Source: a virus
Taxonomy: Duplodnaviria; Caudoviricetes
Virus record (IMG/VR): IMGVR_UViG_3300025087_000092
Span: 1 to 51,856 of that record
Direction: 5' to 3' (one strand)
Length of the DNA stretch: 51,856 bases
Shown here: piece after piece, positions 7,715 to 26,773 of the stretch
Layout: every line of letters starts with the position of its first letter
Numbering within the stretch: position 1 is the stretch's first letter
Position numbers and translations under genes: made by a program
Notes under the pieces: model-generated
Told to the model about the DNA's origin: nothing
The model's database searches: none
What the model saw: the letters and a program-made list of their open reading frames with translations, nothing else

Positions 7715-7743
7715 TATGTTTTTGACTTTGTGAATAGTTATAA

Positions 7744-7760
7744 AGCAACTGGCATGCCAA
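7744..7760 (-). promoter_or_regulatory. Sigma54 (-24/-12) promoter
   Basis: TTGGCATGCCAGTTGCT, GG-N10-GC; intergenic, 30 nt before the AAA_24 ATG. Confidence 0.8.
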
Positions 7761-7771
7761 GTTATAATGTA

Positions 7772-8680
7772 TTAATCTTGGAATGCTAATGGATTATAAG
7801 TAATTCTTTGCATATTTGCTTCAATAGCTTGTGTTTGAATCTGCTCCGGAAGCTTACAATAATCAAAGAACTTACACGGATAAAATCTGCCATTGCAACA
7901 AGTGAAGTTTGGCTTAATATAATGTGCATCAAGCATTTCTACTAACAATCCAATTTGCTGGTGCGCCCATGTTATAAATTCTTCCATTACTGATTGTGGG
8001 TAAGTTATAATTTGACTTTGCGATATTTGTAAACCATCAAATTTACCATCTTCATTAAAAGTATTTTTGTAGAGAAATAATCCATTAATTACTAGTGGCA
8101 AATAACCTTGTTTAGTTAATTGGTTATAGCACCAGCTATAAAACATGCCTTGAATAGATAATTCATATTCTTTGAAAAATTTACTCAAAGCACTTTGGCC
8201 TTTATGAAAAGGCGCATGTGTTTTATGATCAACTAAACAAACAGTGCCTTCATAATCTGATATTAAATCAATGGTGCCAACTAAATATATATCTGTTATA
8301 TTTGACATTGTTGTATGTTTTAAATATGGTATCTTGAACTTAACTTCAAGTACTGGTTTATTATCATTATCAGTTAATAATTTGAATGGATACCCTACGC
8401 GATAATAATAGCGAATTGACTTAATTAAATGTATTGGTGTTCGCCATTCATTTTGTGGAATGAATTGTGTATATGGTTCATAATAAGCTACAGCAAGATC
8501 AATAGCTTTAGCTAAGTTTTCCCCACTATAAAACGCTTTTAATGCACGATGCATTGCATTGCCGTATGCTGCTTTATATGATCCATCTACACTTTCTCTA
8601 TAACCTTGCACTACCATATAATTAAATCTACGCAAGCAAGCTGATTCCTTTAAAGCCGAAGCATCAATTAATATTTCCAT
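7772..8680 (-). CDS. Cas4/RecB-like PD-(D/E)XK exonuclease
   Basis: N-terminal Cys, GNAMH, GTIDL...LVDHKT, QGMFY, C-terminal C..C..C cluster. Confidence 0.88.
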   Translation of the reverse strand: MEILIDASALKESACLRRFNYMVVQGYRESVDGSYKAAYGNAMHRALKAFYSGENLAKAIDLAVAYYEPYTQFIPQNEWRTPIHLIKSIRYYYRVGYPFKLLTDNDNKPVLEVKFKIPYLKHTTMSNITDIYLVGTIDLISDYEGTVCLVDHKTHAPFHKGQSALSKFFKEYELSIQGMFYSWCYNQLTKQGYLPLVINGLFLYKNTFNEDGKFDGLQISQSQIITYPQSVMEEFITWAHQQIGLLVEMLDAHYIKPNFTCCNGRFYPCKFFDYCKLPEQIQTQAIEANMQRITYNPLAFQD

Positions 8681-8684
8681 ATTA

Positions 8685-8876
8685 TTACCATGTTTTTAAA
8701 TTGTGAAACATTGAATCTTCGCCTGTATAAACACAAGCAATATGCGGACCTTTATGACCTTTTGCTCTAGTGCAAACATAGCCTAGTCTGTCCAGATAAT
8801 CATAACCACAATTCCAAGCTTTATGTCTGCATAGCCTACGCTTAGCTGTGCATTTAATACGTTGATTTTTTTTCAT
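8685..8876 (-). CDS. Small Cys/His metal-binding protein
   Basis: CTRAKGHKGPHIAC motif. Confidence 0.6.
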   Translation of the reverse strand: MKKNQRIKCTAKRRLCRHKAWNCGYDYLDRLGYVCTRAKGHKGPHIACVYTGEDSMFHNLKTW

Positions 8877-9085
8877 AGATTTTCTCCATGTTTTGATAAA
8901 GAGTTAATAAATGGTTTTACTGCTGAATCAATTACTTTATCTGATTCAAACTCAATACCGCAGTTACTGCATACTTCTGGGCCATCTTTAATGTATGGCT
9001 GATCATCTTGTCTATTTAATCCGCCCAAATGAACATTAAAATAGTGTGGCATATCACAACGGGGGCAATAATATGAAAAATCCAT
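8873..9085 (-). CDS. Zinc-ribbon protein
   Basis: CPRC...CSNC. Confidence 0.65.
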   Translation of the reverse strand: MDFSYYCPRCDMPHYFNVHLGGLNRQDDQPYIKDGPEVCSNCGIEFESDKVIDSAVKPFINSLSKHGENL

Positions 9086-9086
9086 G

Positions 9087-9530
9087 TTATAATTCTACCT
9101 CTCTTAATAATTTAATTGCACTGCAAGCAATGGATCCAACTGGAGCCATTTTTACTAATATTTCGACATTATCACTTATTTTAACAATATCAACAGATTC
9201 ATCCGATATTTTTTTAAGCGACGCTTTTGACATACTATTAAATAATTGCCAAAATGGTTCAATATCTTTATCAGTAACTACAATCCTTTTTATTTTTTGT
9301 GGTTGTCTTACATTGCAAACATAGCAGCGAAAGTAAGATTTATCTTTGAATGAAATAAAATTTTTTACTGCTTTTTTTGTGCTGAACACAAATAATTTTG
9401 AACCTTCTAGTTTTGGCATAATCCACTCATTAAGTATATACTTAATAGAATATTGACTATACAATTCAAGATTTAAAATATTAAGTATAGATTTATTATC
9501 TAACGTGGTTAATTTATAGTATGTTTTCAT
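9087..9530 (-). CDS. Hypothetical protein
   Basis: 147-aa ORF packed in the operon. Confidence 0.65.
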   Translation of the reverse strand: MKTYYKLTTLDNKSILNILNLELYSQYSIKYILNEWIMPKLEGSKLFVFSTKKAVKNFISFKDKSYFRCYVCNVRQPQKIKRIVVTDKDIEPFWQLFNSMSKASLKKISDESVDIVKISDNVEILVKMAPVGSIACSAIKLLREVEL

Positions 9531-9795
9531 CCATTTCCTCCAATTCTCGTGCCATTTTTTGTAATTCTGCCATAATGTTTTTACATTCTTTCTTTTTCTT
9601 TGATTTCTTTGGGCTAATATCTTTTAATTCTTCTTCTGGTTTATCATGCTTATTCAGCTTGCCACCAAGTTCAGCAAATTGATGATGCTTATTTTCTATA
9701 CTTATACTATCAACAAGCAATAATTTTAATTGCTCATTATCCATAGCAATTAAAGCTTCTGTAGTATAGCCGAGAATTTCTTCAATTGTTGCCAT
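9514..9795 (-). CDS. Hypothetical protein
   Basis: 93-aa ORF with Lys-rich patch. Confidence 0.65.
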   Translation of the reverse strand: MATIEEILGYTTEALIAMDNEQLKLLLVDSISIENKHHQFAELGGKLNKHDKPEEELKDISPKKSKKKKECKNIMAELQKMARELEEMDENIL

Positions 9796-9798
9796 ATT

Positions 9799-10347
9799 TC
9801 ATGATTTTACCATAGTTATAGACTTGTTATCTATTGATATTTCAATTGAAGTTCCTTCAATCAAATTTCTAACCCATTGAATGTCCGCTGTGGTTAAATC
9901 AAGATTAATTAATCGCAGAATAGTTTCACTTGAAGCTAACCATGATTCAATCTTATCTTTCCATGTTTCAATCAGATCTTCAGAAGCATGAAAATCTGGC
10001 GTTATTCTACTTGTAGGAAATGATACAATTATTCCCTCGATTTTATGCCGGAATTTTATCATTCCGCGTAGCATTAATAAATATTCAATGGAAGGCAATG
10101 ATTCTGGAGCGTGATCTTTAAATAAATTATAATGATCAATAATCCAACGCAAACCATCGGTTATGCGTTGCTTCATAGTGCCTGGAGCAAGCCGTTGATT
10201 TTTGAATGGAACAATAATATCCTTATTTATTTTACTTTTGTCCAACATGTGAACAACAGCCTGTGTATAAATAGGTAGAAAGCGTATTGCATTATTGATG
10301 CAATAGCTACTTCGTTTTATGATTGGTCTGTTGGTTTGTGGCGGCAT
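9799..10347 (-). CDS. Hypothetical protein
   Basis: 182-aa ORF with 3-nt spacing to both neighbours. Confidence 0.7.
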   Translation of the reverse strand: MPPQTNRPIIKRSSYCINNAIRFLPIYTQAVVHMLDKSKINKDIIVPFKNQRLAPGTMKQRITDGLRWIIDHYNLFKDHAPESLPSIEYLLMLRGMIKFRHKIEGIIVSFPTSRITPDFHASEDLIETWKDKIESWLASSETILRLINLDLTTADIQWVRNLIEGTSIEISIDNKSITMVKS

Positions 10348-10350
10348 AAA

Positions 10351-10710
10351 TTATATTGTTTGTGTGTGCAACCACTCCTTGTGTTCAAAAGTAGGCTTTT
10401 CGCCTTCCTTACTACGCTTAGTGTTGAATGATTCGTAAATACGAATATTTGTTATGTTTTTTGTAAAATTATGAAAACGCAACAATGCCCACCGAATTGG
10501 CGCCGGAATAACACCATAAATATTTAAATACCTTACATTCGTATCTTGCAATCGATCAAATAACTCTTTAACAACTTTAAAAGCTTCATCAGTCGTAGTA
10601 ATTTCCCTGCTTGCTAAATCAGTAAAATCAATTGTAGATCTTTCACCAATTTCATTAAGTTGAGCTTGCGTCAATTGATGACGCGTAAAAACTATTGCTA
10701 ATGTTCTCAT
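10351..10710 (-). CDS. Small alpha/beta protein, Csx16/Csx20-like (candidate ring nuclease), paralog A
   Basis: IVFTRHQLTxAQ N-terminus and TKRSKE...FEHKEW C-terminus; ATG 10710 chosen by alignment with paralog B. Confidence 0.45.
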   Translation of the reverse strand: MRTLAIVFTRHQLTQAQLNEIGERSTIDFTDLASREITTTDEAFKVVKELFDRLQDTNVRYLNIYGVIPAPIRWALLRFHNFTKNITNIRIYESFNTKRSKEGEKPTFEHKEWLHTQTI

Positions 10711-10718
10711 ATATTGTA

Positions 10719-11051
10719 TTATATTGTTTGTGTGTATAACCATTCAGAAACATTTTCGTGCTTAAACAATTCATGCACATGAATTGTTTTTGTTAGTTGG
10801 GCTTTATTTTTTAATTCAATTAAAGCCCACCGAATTGGCGGAGGAATAGTTCCATAAATATTAATTGTCTGCAATCTTGGATATTGCTGCTTTATTCGAT
10901 TAAACAATTCCATAACAATTTTTAAAGCCTTATCTGTTGAAGGAATTTTTTGATTACTATTAAAATAAATATAATCAAGATCAAGTTTAGCTTGCGCCAA
11001 CTGATCTTGTGTTAATCTACGCTTAGTAAAAACTATTGCTAATGTTCTCAT
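10719..11051 (-). CDS. Tandem paralog B of the preceding gene
   Basis: Shares MRTLAIVFT, NIYGxIPxPIRWAL and EWLxTQTI; 26 identical nt at the 5' end. Confidence 0.7.
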   Translation of the reverse strand: MRTLAIVFTKRRLTQDQLAQAKLDLDYIYFNSNQKIPSTDKALKIVMELFNRIKQQYPRLQTINIYGTIPPPIRWALIELKNKAQLTKTIHVHELFKHENVSEWLYTQTI

Positions 11052-11087
11052 GATAACGACCAAGTTTTGTTGTAACGTATCTAGATT

Positions 11088-11132
11088 AAAATAAAATAAA
11101 ACCGACTTAACTATATTTCAAATTAAGTCGGT
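11088..11132 (-). terminator. Rho-independent terminator
   Basis: 10-bp perfect stem ACCGACTTAA/TTAAGTCGGT, 12-nt loop, T-rich tail on the minus strand. Confidence 0.8.
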
Positions 11133-11147
11133 CTTTAGTTAGTGTTG

Positions 11148-11654
11148 TTAACCTTCGTCCAAATCTTGCATAGCCAGTTCCATGGCTTGCGTCATAAGTT
11201 GCTTGGCGAGTTTCTTGTCGCCTTGTTTCATAGCTTCCCGTGCTTGACGGAAAAGTTTTTCCGGCGTTATATCACGTTCACCGGGCTTGAATGCCTCAGC
11301 ATCTTCTTCCGTTAATAACAGAATCTTATCTTCTGCTATCAACTTACTCCACGCCTTCTTTTGTTCTAATGCATCATCGAATTTAGGCAATCGTCCCTTG
11401 GCCTTGTTACGCATGCTAAACGCAATTGCACTATTAATAAGCGCAAGCATTGTGGCCTCTGTATATTTTTCGATTGCTGCAGCAAGTGATTTAAACTGAA
11501 TAATATAAAAAGAGAATCCGGAAGCCGCTCCATCAAAATCTTTCTTCTCAAGATAATATTCGCCCTTATCCACTCGAACTGTTTTTTCTTCTTCGTTTTC
11601 TGCCAATTCGGCAGGATTAATCTGATTTGTATTAATAATATTTTCTTCTGGCAT
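11148..11654 (-). CDS. Hypothetical helical protein, probably its own transcription unit
   Basis: ATG 11654 preceded by SD-like AAAGGGAG; own sigma54 promoter upstream and terminator downstream. Confidence 0.75.
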   Translation of the reverse strand: MPEENIINTNQINPAELAENEEEKTVRVDKGEYYLEKKDFDGAASGFSFYIIQFKSLAAAIEKYTEATMLALINSAIAFSMRNKAKGRLPKFDDALEQKKAWSKLIAEDKILLLTEEDAEAFKPGERDITPEKLFRQAREAMKQGDKKLAKQLMTQAMELAMQDLDEG

Positions 11655-11715
11655 AATGTTCTCCCTTTTATTGTTGCTAACCTGGCTTACCACAATAGGC
11701 TTGCCCTTGCACATA

Positions 11716-11756
11716 CACACATAGCAATCGGCATGCCAATGTAGATGCTATGTGTG
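11716..11756. repeat. 11-bp inverted repeat enclosing the sigma54 promoter
   Basis: CACACATAGCA (11716-26) / TGCTATGTGTG (11746-56). Confidence 0.8.
11723..11739 (-). promoter_or_regulatory. Sigma54 (-24/-12) promoter
   Basis: TTGGCATGCCGATTGCT, GG-N10-GC; intergenic, just past the bEBP stop. Confidence 0.8.
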
Positions 11757-11763
11757 CAAAATT

Positions 11764-12543
11764 TTATAAATCCCCTAGTATATTAGCCCGGGAAATTAAA
11801 TTAATTAATTCTCTTACATTACCTTTTAATTCTTCTCCTCTTTGTCTCATGCACATTATTTCCATAAATACTTTACATGCAATATCTTTATCTTTTGCAT
11901 AATGTTGACATAATAATTCTATATCTTTTATTGGTCTGCTGCGTAATGGAGGAATATGAATTATTATTGATGAAATTCTGTAGTATAAATCTTCTCGAAA
12001 TTTCTTTTGCTTGACTAATTCTATCAAGTCCGTGTTTGTGGCGCAAACTAATCTACAATTTGCGTGTTGTTCTTTGGTATCACCCAACCTACGGTAGAAA
12101 CCATTTTGTAGAAATCTTAACAATTTACTTTGCAATATCCAAGGCATGTCACCAATTTCATCAAGAAATAAAGTGCCACCATTTGCTTCTGTAACTAATC
12201 CATCTCTATCATACATACAACCCGTATAACTACCTTTAGTTGCGCCAAAAAATTCTGCCTCAAGTAATTCACTGGGTATTCCAGCGCAGTTAACAGCAAC
12301 AAACTGTGCTGGATTTTTACCGTGTAGGGCTTGAGCAATTAATTCTTTTCCGGTTCCAGTTTCTCCTAATATTAGAACTGGAATCGTTTTAATAGCTAGT
12401 TTACGTATTATTTGTTTTATAAATTCTATTGTTGGATCTGTCGTTATGAACTTTTCAAGTATTTCATTAGTTGATGCAGCATAATCTTCTTCATCTAATT
12501 GCTGCTCAAATTTCTTCATTTGTTCAATCAATTTATTGTTCAT
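11764..12543 (-). CDS. Sigma54-dependent transcriptional activator (bEBP), AAA+ domain only
   Basis: GETGTGKE, VNCAGIP, LEAEFFG, KGSYTG (GAFTGA loop), TLFLDEIG, QSKLLRFLQ, CATN, FREDLYYR, GNVREL; no C-terminal HTH, no receiver or GAF domain. Confidence 0.95.
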   Translation of the reverse strand: MNNKLIEQMKKFEQQLDEEDYAASTNEILEKFITTDPTIEFIKQIIRKLAIKTIPVLILGETGTGKELIAQALHGKNPAQFVAVNCAGIPSELLEAEFFGATKGSYTGCMYDRDGLVTEANGGTLFLDEIGDMPWILQSKLLRFLQNGFYRRLGDTKEQHANCRLVCATNTDLIELVKQKKFREDLYYRISSIIIHIPPLRSRPIKDIELLCQHYAKDKDIACKVFMEIMCMRQRGEELKGNVRELINLISRANILGDL

Positions 12544-12544
12544 A

Positions 12545-13408
12545 TTATTCTTCAGCTAATTTTTGTTTAAACTGAAATGCTTGGTTTATTAAAGCTAACA
12601 TTTCGTTTATAATTTCCTGTTGTGTTTTATTTTCATTAATTACCGGTATATAAATATCGGTTGATTCTATTTTATATTTATCCCAGCTAGTAGTTGCACT
12701 ATAGCCAGCACCAGAATAGAAACCAAATTTTTTTATTATATCTTTTGATTCCAATTCTTCTGAAGAAAAAATTAATCTGCGCAGCATGCTTGGGTGAGCA
12801 AATGCAAATGCTAATTTATCAATATCTGCCGGTTGATCAAATTCTTTCAAAAGAATTTGACTTGTATAAAAGTTATCATTGCCTTTTTGCACAGTATGCG
12901 AATACCACAATTCAAGTTGCCAACCAAATTTAAGCATTGCTTCTACTAAAGAAACAATACATGCCCCACGATTAAATATAGTATCATGATTTATATTTGA
13001 GATATGTCCAGCACCAATAATGAATCTTTGTAATATTTTTCCTTCTTTCAAAGATTCATAATTTGGTTTGAAATTAATCATGCAATCTGGAACACCATTA
13101 ATATAATTGCCAATATTAACAGCACCGCCAACTATATTGCTATATAGTTCTTCACTATAATCAAGTTTTGGAAAATACTTACTGATTATCGGATCAATTT
13201 GTATTTTCAATTCACGTATTTTATCTAATCCTTTTGGCCATCCAGTTCTTGCTAATTTAATTGCAGTTTCAAAATTAGGAGTGCCGGCCCATTCATTATG
13301 ATTTTTATCTGATATTCTAGATTCCTTGTCAAACTCGGTTTGCTTATCTTGTGTTGTGTATTTAAGAAAAGCATACCAATTATTGTATCTTCTTAAGATG
13401 TTTTCCAT
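12545..13408 (-). CDS. VWA-like partner of MoxR-type ATPase (DUF7192-like)
   Basis: WxGTxxFExAxxLAxxGW, GVPDCM, RGAxIxxLVE, LAFAFAHPSMLRR; overlaps the AAA gene. Confidence 0.6.
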   Translation of the reverse strand: MENILRRYNNWYAFLKYTTQDKQTEFDKESRISDKNHNEWAGTPNFETAIKLARTGWPKGLDKIRELKIQIDPIISKYFPKLDYSEELYSNIVGGAVNIGNYINGVPDCMINFKPNYESLKEGKILQRFIIGAGHISNINHDTIFNRGACIVSLVEAMLKFGWQLELWYSHTVQKGNDNFYTSQILLKEFDQPADIDKLAFAFAHPSMLRRLIFSSEELESKDIIKKFGFYSGAGYSATTSWDKYKIESTDIYIPVINENKTQQEIINEMLALINQAFQFKQKLAEE

Positions 13409-14424
13409 GGATTGAAATCTTCGGTTGAAGTTATTTCAGACTGTTTATTAAAACCAAGCTTTACGCGTGCTTTTAGTTTATCTACTTGGCTAACTTCTAG
13501 TCCACGAAGTAATACACTGCAAACAAGAAAGTTTTTGTCAACTCCACTAGCAAGCATACGGATTGCTTGAAGTGTATTACGCGGTGAGATAATATGGTTA
13601 ATAGATAATTCATCAATAGCAGCCCGAATATCCACTATACTTTTGACTGTTAAATCAAAATCATTTTTATCCTTGCCACCATACCGACAATATTCATTCC
13701 ATGCTATATTGTGTTCGAATTCTTCATCATAGGGCCAATGAAGATATACAAAAATATTTAATAGTGCTTTATCTTGTGGATTGCGTCCGACATACTGTGC
13801 ATCTGCACCATTGCCAATGGTATTTGCACCAGCAACGAGGCGAAAATTAGGATGCTTATTTATGTTACCAATTGATGGAAAATGACAAACATCCCCGTCA
13901 TTAAGCATCTTTAATGCAACATTAGTGTTTGCGTTGCCATTATCTATTTCATCTATAAATAACAGACCACCATTTTTATATGGTTCATATGCAATGCCTG
14001 GGACATATTTACCATTTGCATCAGTATAGCCAATAATTTCATAAATCATAGTCTCTCTTGAAACTACCTTGCGATATGATTGTAGTTGCATTTGATTTGC
14101 AGCATTAATTACTGCAACAGTTTTGCCGCTACCAGTCGGGCCATATAAATATATAGCATCAGGCCGAGTAAGGCATGATAATAGCAAAGGATAGTTTTTG
14201 TGTTGTGATTTAACCACAAGCTCATTAGACAGTTGTGGTATATCAAGTGGTTTGAATTTAATTATTGTTTCGGCAGGTTTATTGCCTGCTATAAATGCTT
14301 TAATATCTTCAGCATTAATTAGCTTGTGAGCAATAATTTCGTTATGTATAATATCACAAATAACTCGTTCGTCAATTTTAACCTGTTTACTGACTTCATC
14401 AGTGATTATTTTTAACAAGTCCAT
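13393..14424 (-). CDS. MoxR/CbbQ-like AAA+ ATPase
   Basis: GPTGSGKT, GGLLFIDEID, HPNFRLVAGANTxGxG, YVGRN, ISPR. Confidence 0.88.
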   Translation of the reverse strand: MDLLKIITDEVSKQVKIDERVICDIIHNEIIAHKLINAEDIKAFIAGNKPAETIIKFKPLDIPQLSNELVVKSQHKNYPLLLSCLTRPDAIYLYGPTGSGKTVAVINAANQMQLQSYRKVVSRETMIYEIIGYTDANGKYVPGIAYEPYKNGGLLFIDEIDNGNANTNVALKMLNDGDVCHFPSIGNINKHPNFRLVAGANTIGNGADAQYVGRNPQDKALLNIFVYLHWPYDEEFEHNIAWNEYCRYGGKDKNDFDLTVKSIVDIRAAIDELSINHIISPRNTLQAIRMLASGVDKNFLVCSVLLRGLEVSQVDKLKARVKLGFNKQSEITSTEDFNPWKTS

Positions 14425-14426
14425 AT

Positions 14427-14696
14427 TTAATTCTTGAATTCCCGTTTTTCACAAGGTTTAAACATAATCCACTCTGGACTTATAGTTGTTTGATGCGTAT
14501 AGATGCCAGCTTTTTTGCACATAGTAGTAATTTGTCCACGTCTTGTTTGTGGACAAATTATTGTTTCACCGTTTTGCAAACGAGCAAAATACTCCTTGTT
14601 ACTTGGCATTGTTAACGGTATTATGACTTCAATTTTTGTTGAACCATTTGGTAATTTTGTTATGGTTACTTTCATAAATCCTTTTTGTTGAGCCAC
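14427..14696 (-). CDS. Hypothetical protein
   Basis: Packed early-region ORF. Confidence 0.55.
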   Translation of the reverse strand: MAQQKGFMKVTITKLPNGSTKIEVIIPLTMPSNKEYFARLQNGETIICPQTRRGQITTMCKKAGIYTHQTTISPEWIMFKPCEKREFKN

Positions 14697-14911
14697 TCCA
14701 CACAGTGTTGTTCATTACTTTCCAACCATTTTTGCAGCATTTGTGCCGGCGTGCAATCATATTCCAAATATTTTACACAACATTCTGCGTAGTAAGCTAG
14801 CAAAGCTAGCTTACAACTGTTATATTTTATATCTGCAACAGCCCCTTGTTGAATATGGTGATATTTCTCCATCGCATATTGCACATATTCCCAATTTTTG
14901 TATAATGCCAT
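14672..14911 (-). CDS. Hypothetical protein
   Basis: Packed early-region ORF. Confidence 0.55.
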   Translation of the reverse strand: MALYKNWEYVQYAMEKYHHIQQGAVADIKYNSCKLALLAYYAECCVKYLEYDCTPAQMLQKWLESNEQHCVEWLNKKDL

Positions 14912-14914
14912 AAA

Positions 14915-15118
14915 TTATTCTTGTAGTTTAATTATGTAAACTTCCCCGTTGTTGCTATCTTTATGACGATAACTTGTATCACTATCTAGATTAAAGATTC
15001 CTTTCGGGTTAGCCAGTCCAGCATTAAACAATGCTAGAAATGCTTCCTGCATTGTGAATCCATCTTGCTTCCATGGATGTTCTTTGCCTACAGTATAAGC
15101 AAATTTATATTCATTCAT
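14915..15118 (-). CDS. Hypothetical protein
   Basis: Packed early-region ORF. Confidence 0.55.
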   Translation of the reverse strand: MNEYKFAYTVGKEHPWKQDGFTMQEAFLALFNAGLANPKGIFNLDSDTSYRHKDSNNGEVYIIKLQE

Positions 15119-15490
15119 TTATATATTATTTGTCCTGTAATTTTCGTCTTCTAGCAGACTGATCCTTTCACGTAGTTCGTAATATTTTTCAGTCCATTCT
15201 ATACAATTCTTTTTAAAACCGACAGAATTAATATCACAGTGATGCACTGTGCACACTGGTCGTAAATACGGTGGCACTACACAACCCTGCGGACCAATAA
15301 ACGGTATTGGTCCATTGCTTGCAGGTAATAGTTTTATATTGTATTTTTCAAATGCATAATCCACTGTAAATTTGCAGTATTCTGCGGAACAGCAACTGTA
15401 TGCTGTTTTGCAATAATCTCGACAATCGGCTAATGTGAAATCAGCCATCTCTTGATATGCTTGAATCAATTGTAGGAGTTTATTTTTCAT
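15119..15490 (-). CDS. Cys-cluster protein (CxxxCxxxxxCC, YkgJ-like Zn/Fe-chelating)
   Basis: CRDYCKTAYSCC...PFIGPQGC...RPVC...C. Confidence 0.65.
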   Translation of the reverse strand: MKNKLLQLIQAYQEMADFTLADCRDYCKTAYSCCSAEYCKFTVDYAFEKYNIKLLPASNGPIPFIGPQGCVVPPYLRPVCTVHHCDINSVGFKKNCIEWTEKYYELRERISLLEDENYRTNNI

Positions 15491-15876: not shown

Positions 15877-15886
15877 TGGCTATAAT

Positions 15887-17383: not shown

Positions 17384-17389
17384 GCTATT

Positions 17390-17629
17390 TTAGTTATTTT
17401 CAAATCTTTTGCTACAAGCAAATCTTGCAGCAATGAGCAATTCTGCTATTACTTCCGCCATTTGTGCAGAAGTTAAACCTTTTGTAAAGATTACTCCTGC
17501 TGCTATCGCTTCAAGAGTAATGCGTTCTTCGCTTTCTTTTTGCAACTTGCTATCCAATAGCAAGCACAATACTGAACCAATACCTTTTTGAGTTATCATT
17601 GCAAAAATAACTTTAAATTGAATTGCCAT
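17390..17629 (-). CDS. Hypothetical protein
   Basis: 79-aa ORF in the operon. Confidence 0.45.
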   Translation of the reverse strand: MAIQFKVIFAMITQKGIGSVLCLLLDSKLQKESEERITLEAIAAGVIFTKGLTSAQMAEVIAELLIAARFACSKRFENN

Positions 17630-18054
17630 TTGGCAAGCAAATTATCTAGCTTGTTTTTCATGACTTCACTGCACAATTCGTGCATGTAGTCATGAATTAG
17701 TTGTTTTACAACGGCTTCGCCATGCTTGGCAACAAATTCTGGTTTGTGCTGCATGAACAACACATATATGGCGTTGGCGGCTTCTGCCTGTCTATTTGCT
17801 TGCTGCATTTCTACAGCAATGGTTGCTTTAAGCCGCCGTTGCCTTTCAGTGCTGGCTTGCCATGTTTTCAAGCGCCACAGTTTATACACTGCTCCACACT
17901 GTTCAATATGAATGAATTGTTCATGTCCTGCTATGCTAGTGATTGATGCGTATTGAGCCGCATCAATCACTGCATACTCGCAGAAACGATGATCAGGAGT
18001 AAGTAAATTGATATATTCCCCAAGGGAAATAATTATTGTTGGCTTATTATTCAT
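17596..18054 (-). CDS. Hypothetical protein
   Basis: 152-aa ORF with ATG start. Confidence 0.65.
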   Translation of the reverse strand: MNNKPTIIISLGEYINLLTPDHRFCEYAVIDAAQYASITSIAGHEQFIHIEQCGAVYKLWRLKTWQASTERQRRLKATIAVEMQQANRQAEAANAIYVLFMQHKPEFVAKHGEAVVKQLIHDYMHELCSEVMKNKLDNLLAKWQFNLKLFLQ

Positions 18055-18109
18055 AACATAAAAAAGCTAGTCTATAATTATATAGACTAGCTTTGCTGGT
18101 AATGGGAAA

Positions 18110-18580
18110 TTAAATTTCAGTTGATTCGTTGTCGTCAAGACCCTCGAATAAAAGCTCTTGTGCTCTGTCCCAAGCGGCTTTACTTGCTGCACTAAAGCGC
18201 TTGAATTCATCCATTTTACCTGCGGCTTTCGCCGCAAGTGCCTGTTTGCGAAACTCTTGACTATCCCGCATAAATCCAGCACTGCCCTTTTCTCTGCCGC
18301 GTGGGGCAGAGATGTCCATTAGCCAGTCATTAATGGACTTTTCAAATTCAGCAATGTTGCCATCCGCTTGTTTCCAGTGGTATTGGCAAAATTGATCCAT
18401 TGCATCATCAACAATTTCAGCAGCCTTGCTGGCACCGAATATACTGTTGATGTTGGCCAGACTGATGGCCAGGCGTGGATACGACCATTTTTCTCCACGC
18501 TTTGTTGATGCTGCATTTACATTGCAGTCATGCCCGTTAATGTTGAGAATGTTCGAACCGCTGAAACTCTTAATATTCAT
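18110..18580 (-). CDS. Hypothetical protein, first gene of the left arm
   Basis: SD-like AAAGAAAGGG before the ATG; directly downstream of a sigma54 promoter. Confidence 0.75.
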   Translation of the reverse strand: MNIKSFSGSNILNINGHDCNVNAASTKRGEKWSYPRLAISLANINSIFGASKAAEIVDDAMDQFCQYHWKQADGNIAEFEKSINDWLMDISAPRGREKGSAGFMRDSQEFRKQALAAKAAGKMDEFKRFSAASKAAWDRAQELLFEGLDDNESTEI

Positions 18581-18631
18581 CTACTGACCCTTTCTTTGTT
18601 TTACGAAGTTAACTAACTAGCTGCAAGCTAT

Positions 18632-18648
18632 AGCAATAATTGTGCCAA
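18632..18648 (-). promoter_or_regulatory. Sigma54 (-24/-12) promoter heading the left arm
   Basis: TTGGCACAATTATTGCT matches the consensus TGGCAC-N5-TTGCW. Confidence 0.88.
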
Positions 18649-19317
18649 GCATGCTTGCGAAAAATGTAGTGTGTTTTCGTGGCCCCATACTATGGGTAGC
18701 ATATAGCTACGCTTGTGGTATTACGCTCTCCGGAGCATATAGGGATAATTTATTATCATAGTTGAGAGTGCCATCCTATAGTATTTTATGGTTCCTACCA
18801 TATTCTCAAAACCGAGAATCGCGGAGCTTTAACGTTAACGCACAAGGAATTTCTCAAAAGTGATATATAGTAGCACCAAAATACACTAATTTAGCAGTTG
18901 ACACGTATCTATATGTCTATTTTTACTAGTTTTGACTTACGAAATAGGGTAATACAAGAGTATTAGTATGGTAAGTTCAAAGGATTAAACTATCCTCTGA
19001 CTTTCTTCACAATAATATACTTCGTCATTATCGTCATCAAGGAAGACACATCAAACAATGTAGCAGATAATGCACCTATTTTGTCTTGGACACACAGCAA
19101 AGGATAATGATATGGTTTTACTACACAACTATTTAAAGTGCTTTATGCAACTATGTTGTATAATGCAATTCATATTAACTGTATATAATTATTATATGTG
19201 GCTATGTGTAATTCATGTTGATTATATGTAGGGAAATCGCGATTTAATGAGTGCCCGGTATCCCCTATTGGTCTCTCTTAAAATATATATTATAACTTTT
19301 TCAAAATAATAAATTAT

Positions 19318-19353
19318 ATTTGATTTGGCATACAGATTTGATTTGGCATGCAG
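19318..19353 (+). repeat. 18-bp tandem duplication overlapping the late promoter
   Basis: ATTTGATTTGGCATACAG / ATTTGATTTGGCATGCAG (one mismatch). Confidence 0.9.
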
Positions 19354-19359
19354 AATGCT
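19343..19359 (+). promoter_or_regulatory. Sigma54 (-24/-12) promoter heading the structural arm
   Basis: TTGGCATGCAGAATGCT, GG-N10-GC, 15 nt before the terS ATG. Confidence 0.78.
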
Positions 19360-19374
19360 TCTTGTTAAAATTAT

Positions 19375-19773
19375 ATGAGTGAGAATATATTAGGCAATCA
19401 AGGATTGCAACTAAGGGCATTAATAAGGCAAGGCCTCAGCATTATTGAGGCAAGCCAGGCAATGGGAATTGATGAAGATGCAGCTAGACTAGCATTAGAT
19501 AGTAGTAGTAACAAATCATACACAGTAGATGAATTAATAGCCAAGCATAAACCACGAGTAGTAGAAATATTGATGCAAATTGCAGAATTAAGTGATAATG
19601 ATAATGCTCGTGTTAAAGCATGTCAAATACTATTAACTGGACAAGGAGAACTACCAGGCATGAACCTGGCCAAACTTAATGAACGATTTGAGAAAATGAA
19701 ACATGCCTTGAACATCATTGATACAGCAAGTGATACTGCTGCTAGTATAGTGGAACAAAAATTACTTGAATAG
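19375..19773 (+). CDS. terS: Putative terminase small subunit
   Basis: N-terminal HTH-like segment, DNARVKACQILL helix, position upstream of terL. Confidence 0.65.
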   Translation: MSENILGNQGLQLRALIRQGLSIIEASQAMGIDEDAARLALDSSSNKSYTVDELIAKHKPRVVEILMQIAELSDNDNARVKACQILLTGQGELPGMNLAKLNERFEKMKHALNIIDTASDTAASIVEQKLLE

Positions 19774-19777
19774 AATT

Positions 19778-21394
19778 ATGAGTGACTATCGAGAGTTTCC
19801 AGTTAAATTTGAATCACCAGTAGAATTATTAGCATTCTATGATGATGACATGAATAATGGTCAAATTAAATTGCATAACTGGCAAATTGATCGCATGAAA
19901 GTTTTTGGTAGAAATCGTAAAAATTCAGCAGATATAATTAAAGCAGCTTTATGTTCAGCTAATGGTGTTGGCAAATCACAATTTGTCCTTGCCCCTTGCG
20001 CGTGTTGGATGGCGATAACACATGTGGAAAGTCTCACAGTAATTACTACTGCATCCGGTGAACAACTTGATACACAAGATCAGCGGTATATAAGAAGACT
20101 TGGAGAAAAAATTAATTCAGTTCATCGTGAAGATTTAGGCGGCATGGATGTATTTAAATTAAATTACCGACAATTCTTCAATAATGTTACTGGTAGTTTT
20201 ATTGATATGTTTGCCACAGATGAACCTAAGAAAGCAGAAGGAAGACATCCTATCAGACCTAATGCAGAATTTGCTATAATTGTTGATGAAGCAAAAACAG
20301 TAAGTGATGATATATTTGGAGCCTTAGATCGTTGCACGGGTTTCACCCGTAAATATCTTATTTCTTCTCCAGGCGATAGTTCTGGTTATTTTTATGATAT
20401 AATGATTATGTCAGATAGTGGCTTTGATAAAAGAACTGTAACTGCATTTGAATGTAGTCATTTAAATAAAGATGACATAGCATGGAAAATTCGCAAATAT
20501 GGTCTCAATCATCCATTAATCAGATCAAGTATATTTGCAGAATTTGTGCATATAGGAGGAGCAGTAGTAATAAGTAGAGAATTATTAAAGAAATGTCAAG
20601 CATTACTTACACGCATTATTCATTTTGGTCCAATCCGTGCCGGCTTTGATATTTCAGCTGGCGGAGATGAGCAAGTAATTAGTATTTGGCATGGCAATGA
20701 AATGTTGGCTCAAATATGTTGGAATATTACAGATACTATTGAACTTGTTTATAAAGCTATTGAAGTATTTAAAGAGTGGAAAATAGATGCACGAAATATT
20801 TATGCTGATGATGGTGGATTAGGAAGAGCAGTTATTGATAATTTTCGTGAAAAAGGTTGGAATTTTAATAGAATAAATAATCAAAGCCGTGCTTATGATT
20901 ATATGCACTATGCAAATAGGGGTGCAGAATTATACTGGAATTTTCGCAGATTTGTTGAGGAAAAACAAGTAAAAATAATTGATGACGGAATACTTTTTAA
21001 TCAACTTACTACTCGTCAGACTCGTCAACAACAAGCAACAGGTAAAATATTATTAGAAAGTAAAGCAGAAGCAAAGAAACATGGTAGGCCATCACCTGAT
21101 AGAGCAGACGCCTGCGTTCTTGCATGGGTTCCGTATATATTTCCTGTTGATGCTTTACAGCATAATGCTGATGATAAAAATGATAGAACTACACATTGTC
21201 AAGCAATAACAGCAGAAGAATTAATAGCATTATTTGATACTGAACTAAGAATGAATTATCAAGCTGGCATGAATAATGCTAATAATAATGTTGTAGATGG
21301 ACGATATATCAAAAATGATAATTTCGTCAGCAATTATAAAACATTAATGGAGAAATTAAATGAAAGATCAAAAATTTTCAGAAGATATGAATAA
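19778..21394 (+). CDS. terL: Terminase large subunit
   Basis: ANGVGKS, IIVDEA, ISSPG, AGFDIS..GDE, SPDRADA; ATG 19778 preferred over TTG 19766. Confidence 0.93.
   Translation: MSDYREFPVKFESPVELLAFYDDDMNNGQIKLHNWQIDRMKVFGRNRKNSADIIKAALCSANGVGKSQFVLAPCACWMAITHVESLTVITTASGEQLDTQDQRYIRRLGEKINSVHREDLGGMDVFKLNYRQFFNNVTGSFIDMFATDEPKKAEGRHPIRPNAEFAIIVDEAKTVSDDIFGALDRCTGFTRKYLISSPGDSSGYFYDIMIMSDSGFDKRTVTAFECSHLNKDDIAWKIRKYGLNHPLIRSSIFAEFVHIGGAVVISRELLKKCQALLTRIIHFGPIRAGFDISAGGDEQVISIWHGNEMLAQICWNITDTIELVYKAIEVFKEWKIDARNIYADDGGLGRAVIDNFREKGWNFNRINNQSRAYDYMHYANRGAELYWNFRRFVEEKQVKIIDDGILFNQLTTRQTRQQQATGKILLESKAEAKKHGRPSPDRADACVLAWVPYIFPVDALQHNADDKNDRTTHCQAITAEELIALFDTELRMNYQAGMNNANNNVVDGRYIKNDNFVSNYKTLMEKLNERSKIFRRYE
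21264..21280 (+). promoter_or_regulatory. Candidate internal sigma54 promoter in the terL 3' end
   Basis: CTGGCATGAATAATGCT, same TGGCAT-N5-ATGCT type as the other late sites; 80-110 nt before the next ORF. Confidence 0.5.
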
Positions 21395-21632
21395 ATCATT
21401 TGGCCGGCCTCGTAAATTATTCAAGACAAATAAGCCGGTTACTAATATTCCAATTGAACCTGAAAACGCAATGAAGGATGAAACTATGGAAGAAATGCCT
21501 ATGATGGAAACTGAAGAATCTCCTATTGCATTAACTATTAATAGTTGGAGTGAGGAAGAACAACGAGAAGCATATGAATTACTCGCAAAGAAATTTACAC
21601 CAGTTATTGATGAAGCAGAACTTGAAGGTTAA
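21360..21632 (+). CDS. Hypothetical acidic protein with GRPRK (AT-hook-like) motif; start may be 21387
   Basis: Lies between terL and the portal gene. Confidence 0.65.
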   Translation: MKDQKFSEDMNKSFGRPRKLFKTNKPVTNIPIEPENAMKDETMEEMPMMETEESPIALTINSWSEEEQREAYELLAKKFTPVIDEAELEG

Positions 21633-21639
21633 ATAATAT

Positions 21640-23466
21640 ATGGAAATTCTTGAAAAAGATTACAAGGATTTTAAGCTAGCAGATACTGTTCTCCTCAAGT
21701 TAACTAAAAATTGGGAGAATAGTATAAAATCTGACACAGATCATAATAGGCGCGAACGGTATGTTCGTAATTTTCGTCCTGATGATTTGCGTGCTCAAGG
21801 TTTGCTAAAGCAAGATGAAACTTTCATAGCATTAAAAATTGTAGATAGCAATATACGTATAGAGCAACCACAATATATTGCATATTTAACACAAAGTCGC
21901 AGGGCAGCAGTTTTTACATCTCCAACTAATGATACAATAGCTGGTCTTGAACAGCTTGAAATTGATTTTACAAATCGTGCTCGCTACAATGCATGGGAAA
22001 AACCATTTTTGCGTGTAGTTGATGGTTGTCAAATGCATGGTTGGGATTCAATTGAAGTTGTTTTTGATCCAGGAATGCCAGGTAATTTTGCAATTGAACA
22101 TGTGGGTCGTGATAATCTTTGTTTTAGTAAAGATGCAGAAGAATTAGAAGCGCAGGAAATCATTGCACGTAAATTCAGTTTAACTGCGCTTCAATTACGT
22201 GAATTTGTTAAGAATTATAATTTTAATTCCACTGAAGTTGAAAAACTTATCACAGCCGATAAAACAAAAACATCAAGAGACGCAGAAGAATACGATATAA
22301 TTAGTATTGTATATAAAGTATTTTTCAAACAAGATGACTTTGTTTGGGTTGGATGGTGGGCGGAAGGTTTAAATGATTGGCTAAAAGCTCCAGAAAAATT
22401 GTATTTAGGCATGCATGACATTCTTCAGCAAAAAGTTGAAGTTGGTGCTGTTGATATGTTTCAACAACCTGTGCTTGATTATCCACCAATGTATGAAAAG
22501 AGTTATCCATTTTATTTACTACCATACATTGAAAGTGAAAATCCAGTAATTACTAAATTAGTGGGCAGATTATTCCTCGATTATCCTGTGCAAGAAGCAT
22601 GCAGCACTATCATAAGCGCTTTTGTAAATGGTTGCACAAGAGCCTCAAATGTCTATGGTGCACCGGCAGTTGAGAATCTTCAAAATCCTCGTAATGAACC
22701 ACCAAAACAAACTAATGTGGTTCTTAAAAATGGTGCTATATATGATCAGCCAATGAATTTTACTCACATGCCATGGCCTGATAGAGTAGCTGTTTTTGGT
22801 ATTGATTATTTAATTCGTCAAAATAAGCAGGAAGGTTCGCAAATTAACTATGCAGCTTTAACTAGACCTGATACCGAAAAAACAGCAACAGAGTTAAAGC
22901 TTGCTACTAAAGAAGCTGAAAAATTATCCACAGTAAATGTAACATTATTGAGTATTTTTATTCGTGGTGTATATACTCGTTGTTGGATAATTTATCAAAA
23001 TCGTGTTTTGCAAGGTAAAATAGACATCAAGCCTACCTTATTGCCACTTTTTGGTGAAATTGATGAAGCTAGTGGACAAGTGCTTGCTGTTGCAAATTAT
23101 GTTATTAAATCTGCCGGCGATGTTGACGTAGTTCAACGTGCAGAAAAACTTGTTCGGCAAATGCAGTTTTGGCCGGTGGTTTCCAAAACTGCGCTTGCAA
23201 TGGAATTTCTTAAAGATATTATTCGTAATGCATTTCCAGAAGATGCAGAACGTTATTGTGGAATTCTTGATGAAGCAAAGATGCAAGGAGAAGAATATCT
23301 TAAAGCACTAGTGGGTAAATTAGCATCATTACTTAAAGAAGCTATAATAACTCCTGAAGGACAAATACGTCCAGAATTTGCACAATATGCTCCGCAGTTA
23401 CAACAATTAAATGCTGAAGTAAATGCAGTATTAGCACAACAACCTTCAGGAGAAACTAATGATTGA
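21640..23466 (+). CDS. Portal protein (P22-like)
   Basis: 608 aa downstream of terL; KTATE motif; Gln-rich helical C-terminus. Confidence 0.75.
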   Translation: MEILEKDYKDFKLADTVLLKLTKNWENSIKSDTDHNRRERYVRNFRPDDLRAQGLLKQDETFIALKIVDSNIRIEQPQYIAYLTQSRRAAVFTSPTNDTIAGLEQLEIDFTNRARYNAWEKPFLRVVDGCQMHGWDSIEVVFDPGMPGNFAIEHVGRDNLCFSKDAEELEAQEIIARKFSLTALQLREFVKNYNFNSTEVEKLITADKTKTSRDAEEYDIISIVYKVFFKQDDFVWVGWWAEGLNDWLKAPEKLYLGMHDILQQKVEVGAVDMFQQPVLDYPPMYEKSYPFYLLPYIESENPVITKLVGRLFLDYPVQEACSTIISAFVNGCTRASNVYGAPAVENLQNPRNEPPKQTNVVLKNGAIYDQPMNFTHMPWPDRVAVFGIDYLIRQNKQEGSQINYAALTRPDTEKTATELKLATKEAEKLSTVNVTLLSIFIRGVYTRCWIIYQNRVLQGKIDIKPTLLPLFGEIDEASGQVLAVANYVIKSAGDVDVVQRAEKLVRQMQFWPVVSKTALAMEFLKDIIRNAFPEDAERYCGILDEAKMQGEEYLKALVGKLASLLKEAIITPEGQIRPEFAQYAPQLQQLNAEVNAVLAQQPSGETND

Positions 23467-23711
23467 ACATACAAATCCAAGACGAAAGATTGGAACTATT
23501 CCGTCAAGAATGGTTAAAAAATTCATTAACGATAAACTTACTAACGCAGTTGAATCAGGAGGAAATAAAATTAAGAAAAAATCTATTTGCAGCAAGTCGA
23601 CTAAATAATGCACATTGTATTAGTATAATAATAACAGAACTAGAATTATTAGATAATTTGAAAGAATTCATATATGGACGAAGAACCAAATCAATCGCAG
23701 GCACCAATTAA
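23463..23711 (+). CDS. Small helical protein after the portal gene
   Basis: Overlaps the portal stop; typical position in podoviral head modules. Confidence 0.5.
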   Translation: MNIQIQDERLELFRQEWLKNSLTINLLTQLNQEEIKLRKNLFAASRLNNAHCISIIITELELLDNLKEFIYGRRTKSIAGTN

Positions 23712-24759
23712 TATTACAACATCAGAAGGAACTATAAAAGAGGATGTAAATAATGCTGAGCCAATTGCTGAACCAGTGGCCGCTGATAGTAGTGATCATT
23801 TTACTTTTGATGATTTTGATTCTGGAATTACAGACAAGAAACCTTTACAGAAAGATTCTACGGACGCACAACATGATATTGGAGAATTACAGAAACAAGA
23901 TCAAACATTAGTTCCTCCGAAACGTGATTATAGTAAGTTTGATCCTGAAGATGCAAAAATTCTTAAAACATTACATAATCGTGCTTTTGATTATTTTTCA
24001 AAAAGGTTACTTTCAGTTAAACAAACTGAGCAAGAAAAGCAAGAAGCATTAGCACAAGTTAAGCAAGTTACCGAACAAGCACAAGGTAAAATACTCCCTT
24101 CCGCCTGGTATGAACATCCTGATGCTTATATGCTTGCCCCTGATTATCAAGCATTAAATCAAAAGTATGATAAAATTTCGTTTGAATCTGATCATTGGCA
24201 AGAACAATTAATTGCTATTAAAGAAGGTCGTCAATGGACGAGACTACTTGGCTATAATAGACAATCAGGTCAACCAGTATTTAGCGATCCAATTGATCCA
24301 TCTCCATCAGCAGAAATTGGTGTGCTTAACGCTTTTAATTCGATGGAGACTGCAAAGCAACAAATTCAGTCTGAAGCGCTTAAATTGCAAACAGAATTTA
24401 AAGACCAGTATCAGCAAGGCTCCACTTTTATTGATCAAGCACTTGAAAAGAATATAGTTAAACTCATGCCTGAATTAAAACCGCGCAAAGAACAACTTGA
24501 TGCATTTAGTCAACTTATGCCAAAAGTTTATATAGGGCATCCATTACTTAAATTAGCTGCAAATCTATTTGCTATTGCAACAAATCAAGCAAATGTTATT
24601 AGTAGTTTACGTGGTGGAGTTAATTCTCAGGCAGCTATTCAACAGGATAAACGTCGTGCTGGTCCTGGTGCAATTAAGACAGTGGGTGGCGCTGGAAAAA
24701 CTGATAATAATAGTGAGGTAATTGATTTCGAGAGTATAGATAAGGAGTTTAATAGTTAA
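23674..24759 (+). CDS. Putative capsid scaffolding protein
   Basis: Acidic disordered N-terminus, coiled coils, position upstream of the MCP gene. Confidence 0.65.
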   Translation: MDEEPNQSQAPINITTSEGTIKEDVNNAEPIAEPVAADSSDHFTFDDFDSGITDKKPLQKDSTDAQHDIGELQKQDQTLVPPKRDYSKFDPEDAKILKTLHNRAFDYFSKRLLSVKQTEQEKQEALAQVKQVTEQAQGKILPSAWYEHPDAYMLAPDYQALNQKYDKISFESDHWQEQLIAIKEGRQWTRLLGYNRQSGQPVFSDPIDPSPSAEIGVLNAFNSMETAKQQIQSEALKLQTEFKDQYQQGSTFIDQALEKNIVKLMPELKPRKEQLDAFSQLMPKVYIGHPLLKLAANLFAIATNQANVISSLRGGVNSQAAIQQDKRRAGPGAIKTVGGAGKTDNNSEVIDFESIDKEFNS

Positions 24760-24763
24760 ATTT

Positions 24764-24780
24764 TTGGCATAATATATGCT
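24764..24780 (+). promoter_or_regulatory. Sigma54 (-24/-12) promoter for the capsid operon
   Basis: TTGGCATAATATATGCT, GG-N10-GC, intergenic. Confidence 0.75.
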
Positions 24781-24936
24781 TTAATTGTTTCAGTGACTAA
24801 TTGTAGCTATAAAGTAGCAAGTTAGTTCGCCTGCCAATGGCTGGTGTATTGCTTCTGTTTAGTGAAGGGCATCACTGGTTAACTTGCTAGCACCTTAGTT
24901 TAGCAATTAATTAATGATAACAGAAGGTAAAACAGT

Positions 24937-26214: not shown

Positions 26215-26238
26215 TTTAAAAAAAGGAAGAAAAATAAT

Positions 26239-26733: not shown

Positions 26734-26749
26734 TAGTAACAATTAACCG

Positions 26750-26773
26750 GGGGCCAGCTTAAAAACTGGCCCC
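26750..26773 (+). terminator. GC-rich hairpin after the capsid operon (weak U-tract)
   Basis: GGGGCCAG-N8-CTGGCCCC. Confidence 0.55.

Follow-up and report, generated by a model that had tools for sequence, protein, structure and literature searches.

A minimal sigma54 activator encoded by an uncultured tailed phage, and a probable sigma54-dependent switch for its later genes

The IMG/VR virus record IMGVR_UViG_3300025087_000092 (Caudoviricetes) was analyzed over its whole length of 51,856 nt, referred to here as the window, for which the completeness estimate is 100%. It encodes a 259-residue protein that is essentially the AAA+ core of a bacterial enhancer-binding protein (bEBP), and carries six sites of the −24/−12 type associated with sigma54 RNA polymerase. 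The activator and the sites strictly co-occur across an uncultured clade of approximately 50–55 kb phages. A temporal switch built by the phage on the bacterial sigma54 system is, with high confidence, the best explanation of these observations. The later genes of the phage would probably be switched on through the host sigma54 RNA polymerase, and activation of the host holoenzyme by the phage's own bEBP at the phage −24/−12 promoters is a prediction strongly supported by comparative evidence.

The activator core and six −24/−12 sites

The two divergent arms of the genome comprise a minus-strand arm of replication and recombination genes, running from 18580 down to approximately 1158, and a plus-strand arm of structural genes (19375–51179). 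The activator gene and the six sites, designated P1 to P6, are as follows; the matrix scores derive from sites of other phage loci, as described below.

11764–12543, minus strand: bEBP AAA+ core, 259 aa (PF00158, PDB sequence match, AlphaFold2 fold)
7744–7759, minus strand: P1, sigma54-type −24/−12 site TGGCATGCCAGTTGCT, in a 57-nt gap before the AAA_24 (RecA-like) gene; matrix 24.2 bits
11723–11738, minus strand: P2, sigma54-type site TGGCATGCCGATTGCT, 26 nt past the bEBP stop codon; matrix 20.8 bits
18632–18647, minus strand: P3, sigma54-type site TGGCACAATTATTGCT, head of the replication arm; matrix 24.3 bits
19344–19359, plus strand: P4, sigma54-type site TGGCATGCAGAATGCT, head of the structural arm; matrix 21.0 bits
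21265–21280, plus strand: P5, sigma54-type site TGGCATGAATAATGCT, within the 3′ end of the terminase large-subunit gene; matrix 20.6 bits
24765–24780, plus strand: P6, sigma54-type site TGGCATAATATATGCT, 156 nt from the site end to the start codon of the putative capsid gene

The initial annotation had read the open reading frame (ORF) at 11764–12543 as a complete bEBP AAA+ domain, an assignment that can now be made with high confidence. The product matches PF00158 (Sigma54_activat) with 198.9 bits against a cut-off of 20.2 (E = 6.2e-59), residues 33–195 covering profile positions 2–167 of 168, and its best PDB sequence match is NtrC4 (3dzd, 6.5e-52). The AlphaFold2 model (predicted local distance difference test score, pLDDT, of 94.4) is predicted to adopt the clade-6 AAA+ fold of bEBP central domains. 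Its top Foldseek matches are the central domains of FleQ, NtrC4, NtrC1, LuxO, FlrC, and PspF, with E values of 1e-25 to 1e-19 and template-modeling (TM) scores of 0.71–0.81. The chain stops directly after the sensor II helix, and the AAA+ core is preceded by just approximately 28 residues forming a short N-terminal helix. No match to PF02954 (helix-turn-helix) or PF00072 (receiver) was found in the protein. The missing helix-turn-helix and regulatory domains do not bar it from the bEBPs, because known members such as FleT also lack both.

The motif residues of the core are present: Walker A (G60ETGTGKE67), N85, Walker B (D128E129), T169N170, R183, R189, and R244, among which we take the switch Asn, sensor I, the Arg fingers, and sensor II to be represented, on the model of PspF and NtrC1. 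Most are invariant in 33 short homologs, and E61, T64, N85, and N170 are found in at least 90% of them. At the position of the GAFTGA signature the window protein has GSYTGC, which aligns without gaps to the GAFTGA of NtrC4 and retains the first glycine, an aromatic residue, the threonine, and the second glycine. The 33 closest short homologs carry GAYTGA, GAFTGA, or GSYTGC at this position, with an invariant glycine and a nearly invariant threonine.

The pattern TGGCAY-N5-WTGCT has exactly six matches in the window. The number expected from 100 dinucleotide shuffles is 0.32; the shuffle maximum is three, and none reached six. Since the search pattern was drawn from the sites themselves, independent controls were added. 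When the spacer is varied from 1 to 10 nt with the half-sites fixed, the 5-nt spacer alone is enriched (six matches, against 0–2 for the others). A matrix made solely from sites of other phage loci assigns the six window sites 18.4–24.3 bits, and the shuffled window yields on average 1.1 hits at ≥14 bits with the same matrix. In all six, the GG and GC doublets are exactly 10 nt apart. Five of the six sites are intergenic, compared with an intergenic fraction of 3.3–3.9% (binomial P = 2e-7 to 5e-7), and each of the six has the orientation of the gene that comes next, the distance from GC doublet to start codon being 17–158 nt.

The sites thus lie where the initial annotation had located them, except that its plus-strand starts include the preceding T and fall one base early. 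Its description of five sites as intergenic and of all six as pointing along the downstream genes also holds, as does its placing of sites at the heads of both arms (P3 and P4) and before the recombination module (P1, ahead of AAA_24) and the capsid genes (P6). An interpretation in which the six are sigma70 promoters and TTGGCA serves as their −35 element was rejected, because five of them have no −10 element at 16–18 nt; P4 alone has a −10-like hexamer, at 17 nt.

Conservation in related phages

A single-protein scan of viral contigs returned no relative. An alignment-based scan of IMG/VR succeeded, identifying 300 contigs that encode a bEBP relative, from which 80 loci were retained for analysis. 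The nearest proteins in a set of 5.8 billion belong to a family of 250–290-residue bEBPs without PF02954 or PF00072, several of them on contigs of 50–54 kb.

The 80 loci contain 71 strict sites where 3.7 are expected, a count that overstates the number of independent events because many of the loci are near-duplicates (54 unique extended sites). Here too the 5-nt spacer alone is enriched, with 71 hits against 0–9 for other spacers. Strict sites are present in 47 of the 80 loci. Where a locus has no adjacent site, its bEBP is in most cases of a longer, cellular type with a C-terminal extension, and such loci may be host-derived fragments. Positions that the pattern leaves free are also biased among the 54 unique sites: T precedes TGG in 41, G or A follows TGGCAY in all 54 (G in 42), and C precedes TTGC in 31. 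These preferences are features of the published sigma54 consensus. When the window's six sites are added to those of the 80 loci, 55 of 77 are intergenic, compared with approximately 9% of bases.

The sites are conserved at orthologous positions. Five complete relatives of 51.7–55.6 kb have polymerase, helicase, terminase, putative portal, putative capsid, and tail genes in common with the window at 22–50% identity, and contain four to seven strict sites each, against none for a reversed control pattern. In all seven genomes mapped over their full length, one of them the window, the structural arm is headed by a site. Immediately after the bEBP gene, usually 2–62 nt past the stop codon, 57 of 78 evaluable loci have a site that agrees with the core at 10 or more of its 11 positions; the controls gave 1/78 on the antisense strand and 3/72 upstream of the gene. 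At the same threshold, a sense site lies 120–212 nt upstream of the putative capsid gene in all 32 loci compared (window included), 24 of them matching at 11/11, with 0/32 on the opposite strand and 3/32 inside the gene.

Of the 31 capsid-gene loci beyond the window, eight are on contigs already known to encode the bEBP. Fourteen further records of the clade were searched for it and all were positive, one of them nearly identical to the metagenome-assembled genome (MAG) contig described below. The activator is therefore encoded in 22 of the 22 records tested. This count covers 22 of the 31 loci, the nine others including fragments. Together with the site enrichment, this establishes the co-occurrence of activator and −24/−12 sites in related genomes that the initial annotation had put forward as a check.

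The clade has no cultured relative in the GenBank phage collection, in which no DNA match to window positions 7000–27000 and no protein match to the putative capsid, the putative portal, or the 2397-residue protein at the end of the structural arm was found. The bEBP itself matches 66 records there, mostly what look like bacterial contigs filed as phage. Such contigs bear cellular bEBPs, glnG and atoC among them; examples are those named "Acinetobacter phage MD-2021a" and whole-genome shotgun contigs of Salmonella. One bEBP-like ORF is found in the human-gut phage MT121960.1 (locus L107, 7761–8684), with an intact GAFTGA but an atypical Walker A of GETGTDKE. No strict sigma54 site was found within 16.6 kb; the record has only two annotated features.

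With respect to the host, a 49.9-kb relative of the same layout is binned in a MAG titled "Deltaproteobacteria bacterium", which encodes rpoN (5e-66) and has eight other bEBP matches, most of them in frames of cellular length (356–467 aa). A Shine-Dalgarno match, even a loose one, precedes 14 of 60 gene starts in the window, and most starts follow A/T-rich sequence. The rarity of such matches had suggested a Bacteroidota-like host, a candidate that was dropped because the Bacteroidota-type promoter pattern is not enriched (3 found, 4.19 expected).

The proposed switch and its alternatives

The genes and elements associated with the six sites are as follows.

6980–7714, minus strand: AAA_24 ATPase of the recombination module, first gene after P1 (PF13479, 4.1e-9; homologs in 39 of the 80 bEBP loci)
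11148–11654, minus strand: predicted P2-driven gene (from translation; homologs in 40 of the 80 bEBP loci)
11098–11135, minus strand: terminator-like hairpin with a 15-bp stem and T run, ending the P2 unit
18110–18580, minus strand: predicted P3-driven gene, 156 aa (no Pfam or PHROG match; no function from Atlas and family searches)
18063–18094, minus strand: terminator-like hairpin with a 14-bp stem and T run, after the P3 gene; next start codon 9 nt on
18648–19343, no strand: non-coding region between the arms, approximately 700 nt, without convincing ORF or Rfam family
19318–19353, plus strand: tandem 18-nt repeat ATTTGATTTGGCATRCAG, two copies, duplicating the P4 −24 element
19370–19397, minus strand: candidate bEBP-independent early promoter of sigma70 type, TTGCCT-16-TATAAT (consensus match 10/12 only)
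19375–21394, plus strand: packaging genes after P4, comprising a 132-aa small-terminase-like ORF (19375–19773) and the terminase large subunit (19766–21394)
24937–26214, plus strand: putative major capsid protein, 425 aa (Atlas structure search)

At P1, the C of the GC doublet is 31 nt ahead of the ATG at 7714. The gene after P2 likely starts at ATG 11654, because the alternative GTG at 11720 sits upstream of the predicted transcript start; its product is represented in Atlas from residue 23. No Pfam or PHROG family above threshold was found for this product, the sub-threshold matches being DUF1771 and TPR_2 only, and the Atlas search gave no function. At P4, the −12 GC follows the second copy of the 18-nt repeat only, and the upstream copy might serve as a decoy or give the sigma54 holoenzyme a further place to bind. 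The terminase large subunit after P4 matches phrog_2 (5.5e-21), and its small-subunit neighbor is labeled by position and size. P5 precedes ORF 21360–21632 by 81 nt, with the putative portal gene following; it is the least certain of the six sites, because its position is not conserved in most relatives. The predicted leader from P6 is 146 nt long and that from P4 only approximately 5 nt. Short words are common to the leaders after P3 (18600–18632, minus strand) and P6 (24790–24830, plus strand), namely …GCTA…AGTTAGTT…. The capsid label derives from Atlas matches (TM 0.62–0.63 over approximately 310 aa) to Phage_capsid_3/4 and N4-gp56-type capsid clusters; no Pfam or PHROG match was found for this protein, and its AlphaFold2 model, from a six-row alignment, has a pLDDT of 30.

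In the proposed switch, early transcription of the replication arm would yield the 259-residue activator. Lacking a regulatory domain, this protein should be constitutively active once made, and lacking a DNA-binding domain, it should act from solution without enhancers. Enhancer independence is suggested by analogy with DctD250, PspF without its helix-turn-helix, and FleT; ATPase activity, sigma54 interaction, and timing are likewise predictions. The host sigma54 holoenzyme would occupy P1–P6 in closed complexes, unopened until a hexamer of the phage ATPase, acting through a GAFTGA-type loop that reads GSYTGC in this protein, remodels sigma54. The packaging and portal genes would then be transcribed from P4 and P5, the capsid unit, with its high expression, from P6, the recombination ATPase gene from P1, and two short single-gene units, both ending in a strong hairpin, from P2 and P3. 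In the absence of an activator, a sigma54 closed complex is essentially silent, and a host bEBP normally depends on enhancers of its own. Because of this silence, sigma54 promoters would be suited to a tight late switch.

The initial annotation went further, having the phage run its transcription at large through the host sigma54 holoenzyme and its own activator. The comparative evidence strongly favors the core of that idea. It does not extend to all phage transcription, because the activator gene must be transcribed before such promoters can open. A candidate for an independent early promoter is the sigma70-type match at 19397–19370, which faces leftward into the replication arm and overlaps P4. 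In one relative (G006:C112), no sigma54 site was found between the head of the replication arm and the bEBP gene, and the arm head has an 11/12 match to the sigma70 consensus (TTGACA-16-TAAAAT). Such matches are leads only, as they are common in AT-rich DNA.

The annotation's further statement that the phage has no recognizable RNA polymerase or sigma factor agrees with a six-frame search of the window, in which no Sigma70_r2, Sigma70_r4_2, Sigma54_DBD, or T7-type RNA polymerase was found; the T7-type (PF00940) negative is weak, because the control search rang in no control genome. A Pfam scan of 49 ORFs detected no transcription-factor family besides the bEBP. N4-like phages inject a giant virion RNA polymerase, and the 2397-residue protein (43986–51179, plus strand) was considered for this role. 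No Pfam, PHROG, PDB (sequence or profile), or GenBank-phage match was found for it. Its C-terminal approximately 800 residues alone are conserved across seven genomes and include a glycine-rich hydrophobic stretch; the invariant columns of this region are G, P, R, and Q, with no invariant Asp or Glu. An N4-type polymerase was set aside as unsupported on these grounds, together with the lack of a PF00940 match (subject to the same weak control), and the protein may be an internal or ejection protein.

That protein also bears on whether the TGGCA-N7-TGC motif is read by some other factor, either a phage DNA-binding protein or an unrecognized phage sigma factor or RNA polymerase, with the AAA+ protein serving a non-transcriptional role. 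Approximately half of the genes have no family assignment, the 2397-residue product of the virion arm is among the unassigned, and the putative capsid is N4-gp56-like, all of which leave room for such a factor. The motif, however, agrees with the sigma54 consensus also where the search imposed no base, and does so at the sigma54 spacing only. The ATPase retains the sigma54-contacting loop across 33 homologs, the six sites do not read as sigma70 promoters, five of them having no −10 element at 16–18 nt, and the 2397-residue protein shows none of the polymerase features sought, although its PF00940 negative is weak. This explanation is accordingly judged scarcely credible, the least probable of those considered.

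A slightly better, though still very small, chance is given to the bEBP being mainly a host-takeover gene that switches on the host sigma54 regulon (for instance RNA repair, envelope stress, or nitrogen functions), with the phage sites secondary. The phage protein has the same minimal architecture as an AAA+-only bEBP that, in the available text of PMC3844500, activated 16 of 20 predicted Salmonella sigma54 operons. Such a role leaves the enrichment, sense orientation, and positional conservation of the sites in the phage genomes unexplained, and fits better as a side effect of the proposed switch than as an alternative to it. It is also improbable, if by the least of the three, that every phage promoter is sigma54-dependent, the early ones included, with expression bootstrapped by host bEBPs, basal opening, or a virion-carried activator and then reinforced by feedback through P3. 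In the window and in five of six fully mapped relatives, the arm that carries the bEBP gene does have sigma54 sites upstream of that gene. No sigma70-type promoter is verified, and matches to the sigma70 consensus exceed expectation only mildly in the left region (124 found, 92 expected), with no enrichment in the right arm (100 found, 96 expected). The arrangement in G006:C112 described above speaks against this explanation, as do the silence of unactivated closed complexes and the enhancer requirement of host bEBPs, and no enhancers for host bEBPs were seen upstream of the six sites.

Several observations count against a sigma54 switch and qualify the confidence placed in it. The bEBP gene is 6 kb downstream of P3 on the same arm. 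Past the hairpins of the P3 and P2 units the next start codon comes after no more than 9 and 35 nt; the genes beyond them need read-through, and no room is left for new promoters from which the bEBP and downstream replication genes could first be transcribed. A look-up of RNA datasets returned none that contains window positions 18000–27000. The L1 loop of the window protein carries a variant, GSYTGC, presumed to be active. No site of at least 14 bits was found by the matrix scan across approximately 25 kb of tail genes (27–51 kb), and the sites are not the genome-wide set that the initial annotation had described. Among the related loci, 33 of 80 have no strict site within their flanks, and 16 of the 55 intergenic sites were scored as not in sense, the gene calls here being those of a crude longest-ORF caller. 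The near-duplication of loci noted above points the same way. Finally, the rpoN seen belongs to the MAG of a relative, binning is weak evidence of a host, and rpoN in the window's own host is presumed.

Genome context, known systems, and implications

An exact 126-nt repeat at the two ends of the window (bases 5–130 and 51731–51856) indicates that the genome was assembled as a circle of approximately 51.7 kb. The G+C content is 33.9%, and no tRNA genes and no Rfam family were found in the window. The minus-strand arm encodes helicase, MoxR-like AAA, DUF7192, bEBP, PD-(D/E)XK nuclease, AAA_24, and family A DNA polymerase; the plus-strand arm encodes terminase large subunit, putative portal, putative major capsid, a 1717-residue β-helix protein, and the 2397-residue protein. 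The arms leave the non-coding region of approximately 700 nt (18648–19343) between them.

Directly upstream of the bEBP gene (12545–14424, minus strand) are genes for a MoxR-like AAA_5 ATPase (13393–14424) and a DUF7192 protein (12545–13408); the stops and starts of the three genes overlap or abut. Among the 80 bEBP loci, the AAA_5 and DUF7192 pair recurs only in L027 and L051. Elsewhere in the replication arm, a protein with a PRA-PH (MazG-like) nucleotide pyrophosphohydrolase domain is encoded at 1938–2411 (minus strand; PF01503, 1.4e-6). At 10350–11063 (minus strand), three direct-repeat families with spacings of 338–368 nt and 80–89% identity connect ORFs 10351–10743 and 10719–11063, in what looks like the tandem duplication of one small gene. 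In the structural arm, the 1717-residue protein (27131–32284, plus strand) has pectate-lyase-like and right-handed β-helix domains with PHROG matches to exopolysaccharide depolymerase and tail fiber, and is probably a capsule- or exopolysaccharide-degrading tail spike. A 42-nt tandem repeat in three copies (43564–43689, plus strand) within ORF 43267–43986 apparently encodes a proline-rich 14-residue repeat.

Classical late-gene switches include T4 gp55/gp33/gp45, lambda Q, P2 Ogr, Mu C, and N4 SSB. As in the switch proposed here, an early or middle phage product redirects the host RNA polymerase to late structural genes. The classical products act on or replace sigma70, whereas here the phage would supply an ATP-driven activator for the host sigma54 holoenzyme.

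In architecture, the phage protein resembles FleT of Rhodobacter sphaeroides, DctD250, and PspF(1–275), each an AAA+ core without regulatory and DNA-binding domains. FleT is a cellular flagellar regulator that works together with FleQ, and the other two are laboratory truncations. In contrast to all three, the phage protein is virus-encoded, belongs to a large natural family of 250–290 residues, and is paired with promoters on the same genome. FleT is named as the only known bEBP without both a regulatory and a DNA-binding domain in the available text of a review (PMC7175178). The AAA+-only fragment DctD250 is described as activating sigma54 promoters constitutively, promiscuously, and without an enhancer (available text of PMC3844500).

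Two further phage systems invite comparison. The original study on YuA, a phage of Pseudomonas aeruginosa, is reportedly that of Ceyssens et al. (2008). In the portions available of two later sources (PMC5053324; bioRxiv 10.1101/2023.10.13.562163), YuA is described as strictly dependent on host sigma54 and as having sigma54-like promoters, the same dependence and promoter type as proposed for the window phage, and no phage-encoded activator is mentioned there. The view of the initial annotation that no characterized phage works in this way is hence too broad as regards reliance on host sigma54, and survives, within the compass of those portions, as regards the phage-encoded activator. No sequence relationship between YuA and the window phage was found, the putative capsid, putative portal, and 2397-residue proteins of the latter being unmatched in the GenBank phage collection. 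Htm (Gp204) of an Escherichia coli phage is an AAA+ protein with a bEBP-like structure and no DNA-binding domain, for which the authors hypothesize an interaction with sigma54 RNA polymerase (available text of bioRxiv 10.64898/2026.10.06.757011). According to that text, Htm is without the L1 loop and GAFTGA and has an altered Walker B, unlike the window protein, which belongs canonically to PF00158, keeps the loop, and has sigma54 promoters on its phage.

A search of the full-text literature, with subscription journals and supplementary files outside its reach, found no phage-encoded canonical bEBP paired with phage sigma54 promoters. The components themselves are canonical; the novelty is in their capture and deployment by a viral genome and in how minimal the activator's architecture is.

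On balance, it seems reasonably likely that a widespread, uncultured clade of tailed phages of approximately 50–55 kb, together with contigs that share its replication module, has captured a bEBP core and uses the sigma54 holoenzyme as a private, non-leaky polymerase. A single enhancer-independent, constitutive AAA+ protein would then fire every sigma54 promoter in the cell, namely those of the phage middle and late genes and, incidentally, the host regulon. If so, this would be the first case of a bEBP system encoded by a virus, and also of a large natural family whose bEBPs consist of the central domain only. It would greatly enlarge the class without both extra domains that FleT represents, and would provide a function for PHROG 7998, whose present label is "unknown function". 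The hypothesis is directly testable, since it involves six short promoters and a single 259-residue protein, and for orthogonal gene circuits the family would be a natural library of activators that are minimal and enhancer-independent. It would also place a further phage strategy beside phage RNA polymerases, sigma factors, sigma70 appropriators, and antiterminators. For the clade itself, rpoN would be a determinant of host range: hosts would have to carry rpoN, and its loss would lead to resistance.

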